Shown piece after piece: positions 13,401-19,400 of a stretch of DNA of 64,000 bases; within the stretch, counting starts at the first letter, position 1; every line of letters starts with the position of its first letter. A program made the position numbers and the translations under genes. The stretch spans positions 40,610,001-40,674,000 of the forward strand of contig CM097886.1 in NCBI GenBank assembly GCA_044892525.1. Reading direction: 5' to 3'. The notes below the pieces were generated by a model. The model did not search any database. It was given only the letters and a program-made list of their open reading frames with translations, and was not told the DNA's origin. The stretch is from Schmidtea polychroa (Eukaryota).

Positions 13401-16400
13401 ATGGGTGTCATTGATTTCGGGAGGTATTTTTGGCTTTTCTACCAGATTTCCAAAATTCTCTTGTTGCATTTGTTGTTCCAACTGGTCGAATTGTTGAATT
13501 TGTTCGAGGATTTGTTTGTTTATCATTTTACAAATGGGATTCTTTTTACACATTGTTTGGATGTTGTTGATGTGTGATCGGGTTGATTGAATGGTTTGGA
13601 TGATATGGGTTTTTACGGTCATCGGGTATGTGCATTGACTGGATTCTTGTTTAGGTTCTTGATTTTGATTTCGGTAATCTCGTACGATTTTCGGTTGGGC
13701 GTCTATTTGTTTGCTCTCCATCAGAATCATCAATACCATCATTGTTATCGTCATCTCGCCTCGCATGATACTATTATACATTCATTATGTTTATTTACAA
13801 TTGGTTTTAATGACCCTTAATTTAATGGTTCTGATTTGGATTATTTTCGCCGATTCTCATCAAGGTGGACTCTGCTTTAATTACCCTGTGTCTTAACTCG
13901 GGCAGCATTTCCAATTGTCGGTCTTTTTCACGGGCTTCTCTCTTTAGATGTCTAATTTCTTTTCCCAAGCGTCTAATTTCTTCCCTTTTCTTTTCAAGGT
14001 TTCTTTTTAGCTCGATTTGTAGGAGATCTTGTTCGTTTTCTTGCAGGTAATTTTGTTGTTGATGTTTTCTTTCTATTTCTCTATATTTGCGGACCCACTT
14101 CCTCATTTCTTTACTTTCCCGTTGGTTTTCTTCTAGTTGTCGTTTTAATTTATTTATAGCTGTTTGGCGCTCCTTCGCCTCAGTTTTCCAGTAGTCTTGG
14201 ATTACCTCCTTTGCTTTGAAGCTTGCCCTCTCTTTCCATAGTTCTTCCGCTATCTTTTCCCAGTTTTTCCCTCGCTTCCTTTGTTCGTGTAGCCATTCAT
14301 TTTCCTCTTCCGTTTCTCTTTTTATTTCCCCCAACGCTTCACACTCTTTCTTTAACACCTTTATCATTTTCCGGTCCTCCAGGTATTTGTTTATTAATCT
14401 CCCGTTTTCGTATTTCTCTTCCCGTAACTCGGCCTTTAGCGTTTGTGTTTCTGTTGTTTCTGCCTCAATCTCTCCCTCTTCTACGTCGCTCATAATTTCT
14501 ATCATTTCCTCGATTTTCATATCTATAATATTTACAATTAATCATGCGCTACAGTGCGACTTATACTTATACATTTATATCGTTTTTATTTACACAGGGT
14601 TACAGTCCCTCAAATACTTTTACTGTACTTTAATTTTTTTGTTTGGGATATACGTCCCGGTTTTTAGTTTTTCATCTTTTCATCCACCCTCATACGAAGG
14701 TTTCCTCCTGGCCTACATAACCTTCATCACTATCGACCGCGGAATGTAACTGTATCGCAATAGGGTCGTATGGTAGGTAATATTGGGGAATTTGAGCTCT
14801 CAATTCACTAACTTCGTCTCTTAGAGCTCGAGTGATATTCAATTCCTCGTCGAGCAGATAGGTGAGATACCTTGTCTCTTCATCTTTCACCTCTATCTGT
14901 TTGTCTAGGGCCTTGATTTTCTCGTCGCCCTTCCATTTTTCAATTTCTATTTCTAAGTTTTTAATATTTTCGGTGTACATTTTCCTTTCGTTTTCTAATT
15001 TTCTGTTTTTTCCCGCTAGGACCATGTTTCTTTGTTCCAGTGATCCTTGTAATCCATTAAGGTCTCTTTTCATCTCTTCTACCTGATTTACTAATTCCAC
15101 AACCCGTCCCGCTTGTTGGGTTATCATCTCTTCCATTGCGGCATTCTCGTGCTCTCTTATGTCGCACTTCATTGCCAAATGTCGCTCAAACTCCATAGCC
15201 TTTGTTTGCCAGGTTTGGCTTCGGGCGGCGACCTTTCTCAACCTTTTCAATTCTTCCTTTATTATTAAATTCTCCTCCCATTTACCTTGTTCGCTTTCAT
15301 ATCCGAGTCTCATGGGCAATTCTTTCATCTCTTTTTTCATTTCTCTGTTTTGTCTTTTCCATTTTCTCGCTTCTGCCACTAAGTGCATCATTTTCCTTCC
15401 TTCTATTTGCTTTTCCGCTTCGCGCTTGGTGTTCTCATCGGTAAGTCTCTTTCTCGCTTCCTGCACTAGCTGCTTTAAGTAGTGGCTGTGCGCTTCTTGG
15501 CGGGTATTTTCTAATGATGCCCATTTTGATGCTCTTTTACATGCTTCGGCTTCCTCTCTTAAGTTGTGTATTAACCATTGGTATTGACTATTCTCCTCTT
15601 TTCTAGTTTCTTCGATGTGATTTCGGGTGAGATTAGTTAGTTGGAACATTACTTTGTTCCATTTTTTGTTATGTTCTCGGGGAATTTGTGTCTTGTTGAC
15701 CTTGGTTGGGTCTATCGCAGTTTCGGTTATTTTCTCTTGTGTCATCTCTAAATCATAGACATCGATTAATCTTTTTATTATGAAAAAGGAATTTATTCAT
15801 TATTTACTGTTTCTTGGGGAATTTTCGCATCATTTTTGGGTTTTCGTATTTAGGGTTTTCATACTATTATTATATAATATTTTATTGGTTATATACACCG
15901 ATATATACAGATTATTATATACAACATTATTCGATTGGTTACTCCGTTCTACCCTTCTCCTCTTTCCTCACGGTCATCTTGATATATATGGTATCATTTC
16001 TCGCCATATCTTCTACTCTTTGTTGTGAGATGAACGTAGGTGCTCCTGTTGCTGATCCTTCTTCGTTGAGGGGCCTCTGGTAAGCTATTTGATTCCCCGT
16101 TGTTTTGAAGCTTTGCTCATGTATACTTTGGTTGTTCATCAGAGTAATATCGATTTTTGCCTGGAACGGCCATTCTAATATTTCGTCGTATTCTCCTTTA
16201 CATAATAGAAAGAAAATCGAAAAGTGCGTATCTAATCCGGTTCCGTCCCCGTTGGGATATATCTTCATTTTCATTTTGTACCCATTTTTCCAAGAATGGA
16301 ATGTAGGACTTGTTATTCTTGTCTCTTCTCCGGTTTTTGCTTTTCGTATTCTTTCTTTTACTCCCGTTATTTTCCATATGTAGGGTGCTGTTGGGGTTAT

Positions 16401-19400
16401 CTCATTTAGATTTATTTCCCGTATTTTCTGATGTAGCTCCTTGGCCTGATTATTACTGATTTCTATTCGGTTTATTTGCATCTTTATGTTTGCTCGGGCT
16501 TCTTCGAACGCTTCCCTTTCTTCTAGTAGTTCTTTGACTAACACTTTCAACGATGTTATCTCTATCTCCATTTGTTTTACTTTCTCTTCGCTTTCTCGTA
16601 ACGCAGTCGACCACATTTCTGCGTGAGTTGAAGCATTTTCTACTAAATGATGTGGTAACTCACCTCGGTGTAGTAATTTCTGACAACCCCATCTACCTAG
16701 TACACATGTCATTCTTTTCTTTTCGCATTCCCTTAGATGCTGTGCCACCTTCATTATTTCCCCTTGGTTACATCCGTTTGGGCATTCCCCACTGAACTCC
16801 GCACATACTCTCTCCTCTTGGACATTGTGATGTTTGAGGGTGAGATTTATCCACGTATCTATTTCTCCACAGTGTTCACATCTTTCCAATCTCTCTTCAC
16901 ACTGCCTTTGATGCTCTTTTTCTTCGCTTGCTCGAATGGTTTTATGGCACCTTTCACACTGGCCAATTCTGTACATACATTCTCCCATATGTTGTACTAC
17001 CTTCCATATTACTCCTTTCCATTCGCATGGGGCATTTTTGCATCCCAGGTTGGTGTTTAACATGTCTTTCACTGCGGCTTTATCCTCGTTAGTGTCTTCT
17101 AAACTCGATATTAGTGTCTCTTTGCACACCGGGCACCTCTGTGGTCTATTCTTTATTGCTTCACTGATACATTCTTTACATGCTCGGCATCCACATTGCG
17201 TTTGGTGAGGTTCCTTTAACAACTTTTCACATATTCCGCACATAACATGTTTGTGTATTCTGATCGTTGTAGATTTTCGGACTTGCTCGACAATCTCTCT
17301 GAACTCTTCTCTTTGTCGTTTATCCATTCTATAATTATACGTACAAATAGTTCTTATCGATACAGGTTCGATATTTTATTTACAATTATTTACATTTTGA
17401 GCTAGGTTTGGTTTAGGGTTCGGAAGAGTCGGCTTCGTGTCCGCTCTCCTCTCTATTCATTAGCCATTCCGACCAGTCTTCTATTTCTATCTGTTCTGCT
17501 TCCTCCCTCATTCGGTCTATTTCAATTTCCTGTCGACGGCTATATTGGGTTATCCTCTCTATTTCTCTTTGCATTTGTTCGATTTTTAACCTCTGGTCTT
17601 CAATTATCTTCAAATAACTAAATCCTCTGTTCATACTCTCGATCAGGTTTCTGTGCATCGTCAGTCCTTGTTCTTGCAAATTGGACACTAATTGTGCTAA
17701 TACGGCGCATTGTTGCTTCCATAATTCTTCAGTTACTGTATTGGGGTTCATTTCGCTATTTCCTTGATCCATTCCTAATTTATATACACTTTTCAACTCT
17801 TATGTAAATTTAATTTTATTTTGTGATTCCCGTTATTGTATAATATTGATACCGCGCTTATATAAAGATATAGTACTGTTATATACATAAGATATACTTA
17901 CTTTTTACAATTATATACAGTCATATTCCTTTCTATATACGTGAGTTTGGAGGGCGCTGAGTGTTCCAGGCCTCCACCCACTGTTCTTGTTTGATATCAC
18001 TTGGTCGTTTCACTCGATGTTGGAAATTTCTGATTCGGGTCATCTCTAGTTCTCCGCGATGTCGTTTATCTTTGATTATTTTTATTGTTCCCCCCGTTAT
18101 AATTAGGAAGGCCCCTGTTATTATTATCCCACTGATCCACATCATCTGCTTCACGCTTATATTCTCTGGTTTCTCCTTGTTCGTTAATGTTGATATCGCT
18201 TCTATGCCTTTCTCGTTTCCTCTTTTGCCATTTCCTTTCATCATTTCCCGTATTCTTGCTATTTCCTCGTTCATACCCTCCTTTGCCATCTTTTGTATTT
18301 TTTCCATCTCTTCCTCCGAAACATAGTTGTCCTGAGCTTCCTCGCCGGTTTTCTTGTGCTTTCCTCCTTCGTCCTTTTCGTCGTGGTTTTTCCTTTTCTT
18401 TCCTCTTTTCCCCGGGTATCGTCGGCATTCTCTTTTTGATTCGTTTCTCCAGATACAAACCGTATATTCCTTCGGGGGCTGCTGCTGCGTCACATATTGA
18501 TGGCATCTCTCACCCGGTCCTAATCTTGAAATACAGACTTTGTGCTCTTTTCTTGGTTGGAGCTGCGTTATTACTACTTCACCACCTTTTCCTAGGTGTA
18601 CCTCTTTTCCTTTGACGTTCGTTATTCTCTTCCCGTCTCGGTTTCGGTATGCTTCTTGTATTCTTACTTCTGTTATTGGTTCTGTGTCCTCATTTATCAG
18701 TACTAGTTTCTGATACGCTCTAGACATGCATCTTCCTAGTATGCACCTTTCCTTTAAGTCCCATTCTTCCTTTAAATCCCACTGCTGCTCTTGTGCTTGC
18801 TTTTTCTTTTCTTGTTTTAGTTCATCCTCTTTGCTATCTTGATTCTCCGCTTCTTTGGTTTCTTTTATCGTTCTCGTCCCTCCCTGAGCTGTTACTAACT
18901 CTATCATGGTAAGCATAATTATCATTAATATCATATTTGTCTCTATTTCTTTGTTAGTGAAAGGTAGGCATACCCTCTGTTTTCCATTATTCGATTTTTC
19001 CTCCTCTTTGGTCTTAGTTCCCGGGCTGTTTCCCTCTCTTTTCGTATCCGAATCCTTGTTTTCCGGTTTACCCTCCTCCGGTTCTCTTTTCTCTTTATCC
19101 TCCTTTCGGCCTTTTCCGTTATTGTCATCGTGTTTATCTCCCCCGCTGTCGTTTAAAATGTCGTCCTCGACATTTATATCGTTCAATAATCTGCGATATG
19201 CTGTTAGCACTCTGTTTCTTGCTAATTTTGCTTCGAATTCAAACTCCTTCCTGCCCGTTGCAGCATGCCTCTTTCTATTCCATTCTTTAACTAACTCTCT
19301 CAATTGCATACAACGATGTTTCCCAATTCGTTGTTGCTCGTTCTGATTTTGCGTGAATTTTAGGTCTTCTCTATTTAATACTATTAAAATAATTTTAGGC

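Follow-up and report, generated by a model that had tools for sequence, protein, structure and literature searches.

How does a complete signalling gene come to be carried by a retrotransposon, and what could it do there? This question is raised by a locus in the planarian Schmidtea polychroa, which we analysed in a window of 64,000 nucleotides (GCA_044892525.1, contig CM097886.1, forward-strand positions 40,610,001 to 40,674,000; coordinates below are window positions). An open reading frame (ORF) at 15939..17327 on the minus strand encodes a full-length TRAF protein of 462 amino acids (aa), from ATG to stop in a single frame without introns. It is an accessory ORF of an intact env-bearing Ty3/gypsy element with long terminal repeats (LTRs), 30.3 kb in length and also on the minus strand (8775-39075), which is of the type called Burro in planarians. 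Our results show that this TRAF is a family-wide cargo under purifying selection. In the following, family A is the family of the window element itself and family B is a second Burro-type family of the genome G000.

The preliminary description of the locus had recognised a RING, TRAF zinc fingers, a coiled coil and a MATH domain within the 462 residues, and this layout is confirmed by Pfam, by matches in the Protein Data Bank (PDB) and by an AlphaFold2 model compared with Foldseek. Specifically, the RING occupies residues 30-68 (PF00097, E = 2.5e-4, 21.3 bits with a cut-off of 21), the zinc fingers residues ~76-235, the coiled coil residues 232-309 and the C-terminal TRAF-type MATH domain residues 316-453 (PF21355, E = 2.9e-27; PF22486, E = 3.3e-27). 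The Pfam scan of the family-A protein gave no match to the zf-TRAF profile. The zinc fingers are nevertheless of the TRAF type: their Cys/His columns are conserved in the TRAF alignment, residues 28-154 resemble the RING-zinc-finger chains of TRAF6 (E = 2e-14) and TRAF5 (E = 1e-13) in the PDB, and the family-B homologue does have a zf-TRAF match in Pfam. The AlphaFold2 model, based on a 47-row alignment, has a mean per-residue confidence (pLDDT) of 90.9 and a predicted TM-score (pTM) of 0.44. In the model a helix of 78 residues (232-309, pLDDT mostly >90) precedes the MATH sandwich and constitutes the coiled coil (TRAF-N). Foldseek ranks TRAF1/2/3 domains highest (E about 2e-18). The MATH groove retains K355, Y357, D361, F372, F407, Y416, G428 and P430, which we take to have the roles of their equivalents in TRAF2. 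The serine triad of the groove is replaced by Gln-Ile-Ala. The first Ser of the triad is present in 8/8 planarian host rows, and the next two positions vary there too.

Searching G000 with the TRAF sequence yielded 92 scored matches out of 1928 candidates, i.e. at least 92 copies. All 92 are full length with 95-100% identity and 91 of them have no stop codon. We fetched 50 of these copies (the 30 at the top and 20 towards the bottom of the ranking), and every one is open and has the identical set of neighbouring ORFs. Six copies had been flagged as frameshifted; this was rejected, as they contain net-zero gap pairs and their frames are open. When copies were chosen through the DNA of the upstream ORF (40 scored of 380 candidates), 37 had an open full-length TRAF; the rest, matched by hand, were one copy with a stop codon, one with an in-frame deletion and one truncated. 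Three family copies (L004, L028, L122) with internal deletions were seen as well, two of which jump from the internal region to the LTR or leader.

Variants shared by at least two of the 50 copies comprise 46 nonsynonymous and 83 synonymous changes, which corresponds to a dN/dS ratio (omega) of 0.14-0.20 depending on the transition weight (binomial p < 1e-18); the overall value for the TRAF ORF is about 0.17. Singleton variants (28 nonsynonymous and 25 synonymous) give 0.29-0.40. Omega is 0.11 in the RING, 0.15 in the zinc fingers and 0.18 in MATH, and it is comparable at the end of the polyprotein (0.15-0.19). None of the 36 Cys/His sites in residues 1-235 has changed, and the eight zinc ligands of the RING (C30, C33, C45, C47, C50, C53, C65 and C68) are the same in 50/50 copies. 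MATH positions 414-415 at the edge of the groove vary in 18/50 copies. Amino-acid variants among the copies were also noted to cluster at residues 395-403 and 414-421, again at the binding-groove edge. The preliminary description would have been contradicted by absence of the ORF from other copies of the family or by lack of purifying selection; the copy number and the dN/dS reported here are the opposite of both.

Codon composition gives information about the time that the gene has spent in the element. Counted as A/C/G/T, the fourfold degenerate sites of TRAF are 71/23/31/16 and those of the polyprotein 815/231/319/184; four intronless host TRAFs, pooled, have 208/94/84/150. The TRAF composition is not different from that of the polyprotein (p = 0.93) and differs from that of the pooled host TRAFs (p = 3e-4). 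The fraction of T at fourfold sites is 0.11 in the element TRAF as compared to 0.26-0.30 in those hosts, and the overall fraction of A is 0.41 as compared to 0.37-0.39. An A-rich codon bias of the element had been claimed for the gene. The element-like composition stands; the label does not, and "T-poor, purine-rich" describes it better. The comparison also supports the earlier proposal that the gene has adapted to the composition of the element: since its fourfold sites match the polyprotein, it has resided there long enough to acquire the T-poor bias.

Where did the gene come from? Our host sample consists of the top 30 among 150 matches that were scored from 1551 candidates, plus a few more; the RING core was examined in 32 host rows. 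The RING of the element TRAF has a CGC core in place of the usual CGH, which had been pointed out as an anomaly. It is the normal form in planarian host TRAFs: CGC is found in 22 of the 24 with a recovered core, the others having CSC (one) and CGV (one), and CGH in none. The same core is present in 3/3 other RING-bearing planarian proteins and in one crinoid protein. Cysteine is able to bind zinc in place of histidine. We therefore rejected CGC as a mark of a dead or element-modified RING and consider it inherited from the host lineage. The lack of introns is likewise no proof of mRNA capture, because several full-length host TRAFs are intronless too. Of the claim that the gene was captured from a host mRNA, the origin from the planarian TRAF lineage is upheld by trees and searches, but the mRNA route cannot be deduced from the missing introns; it is the natural route for a retroelement. 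Single-frame host TRAFs of 442-467 aa lie outside any Burro context, and their places in the tree are with proteins of Dugesia and Dendrocoelum. Within the host sample no gene is nearer than about 33% identity to the family-A TRAF, and among 1.84 billion representatives the top full-length single-stretch matches are planarian proteins with about 31% identity. In the 5.8-billion set the element TRAF as query had 0 of 3981 candidates scored, an effect of the word filter, given that a host TRAF as query had 111 of 4122. One of the host TRAFs of G000 has 71% identity to a protein from Dugesia japonica. Six host genes (L072, L115, L073, L074, L075 and L076) were considered as decayed element TRAFs and rejected, having a host-like fourfold T of 0.22-0.37 and no same-strand Burro neighbours. 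Two observations concern the surroundings of host TRAFs: a 1122-aa ORF for a Polinton-like DNA polymerase B (L077:266-3631) adjoins one of the host TRAFs in the two-exon cluster, and a single frame of 283 aa with matches to a proteasome subunit and SelR (L067:494-1342) lies near an intronless host TRAF.

The trees were based on RING, zinc-finger and MATH columns of 52 rows, after four host rows without the N-terminal part had been dropped. The TRAFs of families A and B are sisters (95/89) within an unresolved planarian group (93/86), and A remains in the planarian group (87/98) when B and 16 other rows are left out. Judged from these trees, descent of the element TRAF from a planarian host TRAF lineage is supported. 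The two-exon host expansion forms, together with one single-frame gene, a separate clade (100/100). The approximately unbiased (AU) test rejects a union of A with the two-exon host genes in one clade (p = 0.031) and does not reject such a union for A+B (p = 0.22). The three element lineages are unresolved in a tree of MATH only, and a single origin of all three is not rejected (AU p = 0.46). The suggestion that host TRAF expansions derive from such elements thus received no positive sign from the phylogeny, and the host expansion and the element TRAFs may have a shared ancestor. In a bolder scenario the TRAF of the Burro lineage would be catalytically active and older than the radiation of planarian TRAFs, the CGC-type and partly intronless host repertoire would have been seeded from it, and the groove would be the site of an arms race. 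Topologies with the elements outside the sampled host CGC TRAFs (p = 0.42) or next to the expanded two-exon genes (p = 0.22) are compatible with it. There is no support for seeding in the sampled host genes, which have neither the codon signature of the element nor its context, and we regard the scenario as very improbable.

The gene is not confined to family A. In family B, the reverse transcriptase (RT) is 88% identical to that of family A and the polyprotein frame of 4791 aa contains a MATH domain. A full TRAF of 474 aa is present in the matching 3' slot, followed by an IAP gene with BIR and RING, in both copies examined. The TRAFs of A and B are about 30% identical overall (21-34% by domain) and have 28/35 Cys/His in common. 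A pair of family-B copies differs in TRAF by 17 nonsynonymous versus 33 synonymous codons. We infer that the capture would have occurred once, before the split of families A and B. In the family-B stretch L066:2851-5591 the full TRAF is directly followed by the BIR+RING IAP, which is the pairing of the host tumour necrosis factor (TNF) receptor complex. A third env-bearing family was noted at L101-L104 (G000:C4, about 73.195-73.232 Mb), with a frame of 3334 aa, RT identity of 49%, a pair of accessory ORFs that are each about 1030 aa long, and no TRAF; a homologue of the 161-aa RING ORF described below is found nearby.

What could the TRAF do for the element? In our view the selected, host-derived protein is rather likely to act as a trimer that is both adaptor and ubiquitin ligase. 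It would change how death and stress signals pass through host TNF receptors and IAPs, and would in this way let cells survive in which the element is expressed. The ORF would be translated from a sub-genomic or spliced RNA. Its product would trimerise through the coiled coil and the MATH domain, bind host receptor or adaptor tails with altered specificity and ubiquitinate through its eight-cysteine RING. It might be one component of a kit that also comprises the IAP-type RING, Bcl-2-like and ankyrin modules of the same element. An active adaptor/ligase is preferred to a RING-less dominant negative because the RING is intact and constrained. Knock-downs of host TRAFs have been shown to affect cell survival in planarians (PMC7586133).

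Several observations weigh against this explanation. Position 57 of the RING, which we take as a criterion of E2 binding, is Ala in the family-A TRAF and Tyr/His in planarian hosts, making E2 binding unsure. The BIR-containing IAP of family B is absent from the family-A element, and the Bcl-2-like (E = 0.031) and ubiquitin-like (E = 0.0044) segments that precede Env in the polyprotein are both below the Pfam cut-offs. In the distant env-bearing family C (RT 49-50% where present) the stretches fetched from four places contain no TRAF, so the gene is not required by such elements. The A and B TRAFs that are joined in the tree both have long branches and a common compositional bias. A host clade that excludes the element TRAFs is not rejected in the AU test (p = 0.42) and the donor therefore cannot be named. 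Finally, choosing copies by similarity favours intact ones. It is important to note that the neighbouring ORFs, which were not the basis of copy choice, have omega values of 0.12-0.19; since these are equal to that of TRAF, the low omega is not produced by the choice.

An alternative is a decoy or dominant negative with little ligase activity, which would block signalling by sitting on receptor tails or by entering the trimers of host TRAFs. In agreement with this, the groove is mostly kept and yet carries Gln-Ile-Ala in place of the triad whose first Ser the hosts retain, the residue at RING position 57 is small and the coiled coil is of ordinary length. However, the constraint on RING and zinc fingers is as strong as that on MATH, and both are retained in the two families, while known dominant-negative TRAFs are without a RING. 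The dominant negative envisaged in the preliminary description is accordingly not supported in its classic, RING-less form, and we find a decoy unlikely. TRAF1 has been described as being without a RING and ligase function (PMC7586133). The preliminary description had alternatively proposed a rewired adaptor that serves membrane proteins encoded by the element itself. The candidates are the Env tail, the 222-aa accessory protein and the C-terminal tail of the polyprotein. Several membrane segments are encoded by the element, and TRAFs serve the viral protein LMP1 in an analogous way. The Env tails of both families have one [PSAT]x[QE]E match each, as does the tail of the membrane protein in family B; a PxExxL string, picked post hoc by eye, lies 23-26 residues past the membrane segment in the accessory membrane proteins of both families. 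The loose [PSAT]x[QE]E motif is common in non-membrane ORFs as well, and the membrane proteins of A and B fail to align (E = 0.89). Four canonical TRAF-binding motifs were looked for in the last tail of the polyprotein and in the tail of the 222-aa protein that is predicted to be cytosolic, and neither contains any of them. The sequences thus leave the private adaptor unsupported and, in our judgement, quite improbable.

The ligase could also be directed at the life cycle of the element or at a host restriction factor, either by ubiquitinating Gag/Env or by degrading a defence protein. The same element contains a second RING ORF and ubiquitin-like segments, and the variation at 414-415 is what a moving host target might give. 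The companion cargo (the BIR-IAP in family B, the Bcl-2-like segment and ankyrin) points instead to the death/NF-kB axis, and we hold this possibility to be improbable too. Could the gene simply be a neutral passenger, transduced recently and copied along with a young family? The LTRs of the element are 99.98% identical, and because the family is young, open frames alone are weak proof of function. The selection test (omega about 0.17, p < 1e-18) refutes such a passenger, which is also at odds with fully element-like codon usage, with an open 30%-identical homologue in a second family and with a nearest sampled host gene of only about 33% identity; we give it hardly any credence. A selected host-lineage adaptor and ligase is the explanation that we retain, as a probable one.

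The element around the TRAF is intact. Its 5' LTR (34966..39075, minus strand, 4110 bp, TG...CA) and 3' LTR (8775..12884, minus strand, 4110 bp) differ at 1/4110 bases, so the element is young, and they are flanked by a 4-bp target-site duplication (8771..8774 on the left and 39076-39079 on the right). The primer-binding site (34941..34958, minus strand), 7 nt inside the 5' LTR, is presumably of the tRNA-Pro type. A 16-mer from it (34943-34958), common to families A and B, occurs 1079 times in G000 (control 0), which is a rough tally of the 5' ends of such elements. Each LTR contains an ORF of 250 aa on the minus strand with no Pfam match (35500..36252 and, as the second copy, 9309-10061); it is open and 95% identical in another copy (L080). 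Upstream of the polyprotein there is an accessory ORF of 161 aa (34138..34623, minus strand) with a C-terminal IAP-type RING (PF13920) and no BIR, and the leader contains a tandem repeat of 75 bp x 6.6 (33042..33531), to which no strand is assigned.

The polyprotein of 4617 aa (17933..31786, minus strand) comprises Gag with CCHC knuckles, Env (PF24664), protease, RT, RNase H, integrase and ankyrin repeats. Env lies in frame between Gag and protease, and Pfam finds no MATH domain. The sub-threshold Bcl-2-like and ubiquitin-like signals lie where the Burro design has such segments; the Bcl-2-like segment has no match in PDB or Atlas. Between protease and RT no dUTPase-like segment is matched by Pfam; its published assignment came from HHpred. 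A YPxL-like string at residues about 2355-2358, after the Env tail, which we take to resemble a retroviral late domain, was not seen at that place in family B. Five ORFs follow the polyprotein on the minus strand, in the order 119 aa, TRAF, 351, 232 and 222 aa. The 119-aa ORF (17413..17772) adjoins TRAF upstream, has a family-B homologue in the equal slot and is constrained; the charged, coiled-coil-like ORF of 351 aa (14690..15745) also has a family-B homologue and is constrained. The 232-aa ORF (13822..14520) is coiled-coil-like and 25% identical to a 261-aa ORF of family B, and the 222-aa protein (13113..13781), whose tail is rich in proline, is predicted to cross the membrane once (128-146). 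Contigs of one sequencing run, guessed to be RNA but possibly DNA, extend over 30/30 bins of window 13000-32900, TRAF included, and no joints with canonical intron ends were found across that coverage. Near the C-terminus of the polyprotein, at window 18510, a loose end is common to three runs from two studies and may be a variant subfamily or a splice site. Outside the element, a fragmented hAT-type transposase (DUF4371 and hAT dimerisation domain) is present at 50509-52860.

How does this relate to known elements and proteins? Burro1/GYPSM1 and Burro-2 to -4 have been described as giant gypsy-like LTR elements of Schmidtea mediterranea, with MATH_TRAF_C, BIR, BCL2-like and ankyrin listed as cargo, and in a Burro-like element of Dugesia tigrina MATH is a separate accessory ORF (PMC6431247). 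Burro becomes de-repressed on piwi knock-down (PMC8532177). Judged by the description in PMC6431247, the window element is alike in its size of >30 kb, long LTRs, giant ORF with Gag, in-frame Env, RT, integrase and ankyrin, leader tandem repeats and TRAF MATH cargo. It differs from Burro1/GYPSM1 in the strict sense in having no MATH in the polyprotein and no BIR. That description names MATH_TRAF_C alone, in ORF1 or an upstream ORF, whereas the window element has a complete gene with RING, zinc fingers, coiled coil and MATH downstream of the polyprotein. Family B suits the Burro1 description better (MATH inside ORF1 and a BIR ORF) and has the full 3' TRAF in addition; because of this fit, the 3' TRAF may already be drawn in Burro annotations. 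TRAF-domain cargo in Burro is thus already published and the complete 3' TRAF is a fuller version of it. In the literature searched, which left most subscription journals, figures and supplements outside its scope, we found no paper that reports a full TRAF with a RING on a Burro element or that derives host TRAFs from Burro.

Among proteins, the TRAF2-like set of planarian hosts (Dugesia japonica TRAF2-like A and Dendrocoelum lacteum 'TRAF-4' by their UniRef names) has the same architecture, a length of 442-488 aa and the CGC core. The set includes Smed-TRAF-2A/B (PMC7586133), and several members are intronless in G000. The element TRAF differs from them by its ~30% identity, long branch, T-poor codons, loss of the first Ser of the triad, mobility and a copy number of about a hundred or more. 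With vertebrate TRAF2/3/5 it shares the fold of MATH (TM-score over the target about 0.8) and the Arg/Lys-Tyr-Asp and Gly-x-Pro residues of the groove; it differs from them in that the fourth RING ligand is Cys instead of His, in the absence of the serine triad and, judged by length, in having fewer zinc fingers.

A complete, selected gene for a signalling adaptor/ligase is rare on a retroelement. Element copies make up most of the top-scoring MATH matches in G000, and planarian TRAF gene counts should therefore be screened for sequences that belong to elements; the same applies to lists of traf transcripts targeted by piRNAs (PMC6824462). For Burro itself, an interference with apoptosis and ubiquitination has been proposed (PMC6431247), and this published guess now gains a single gene that can be assayed.

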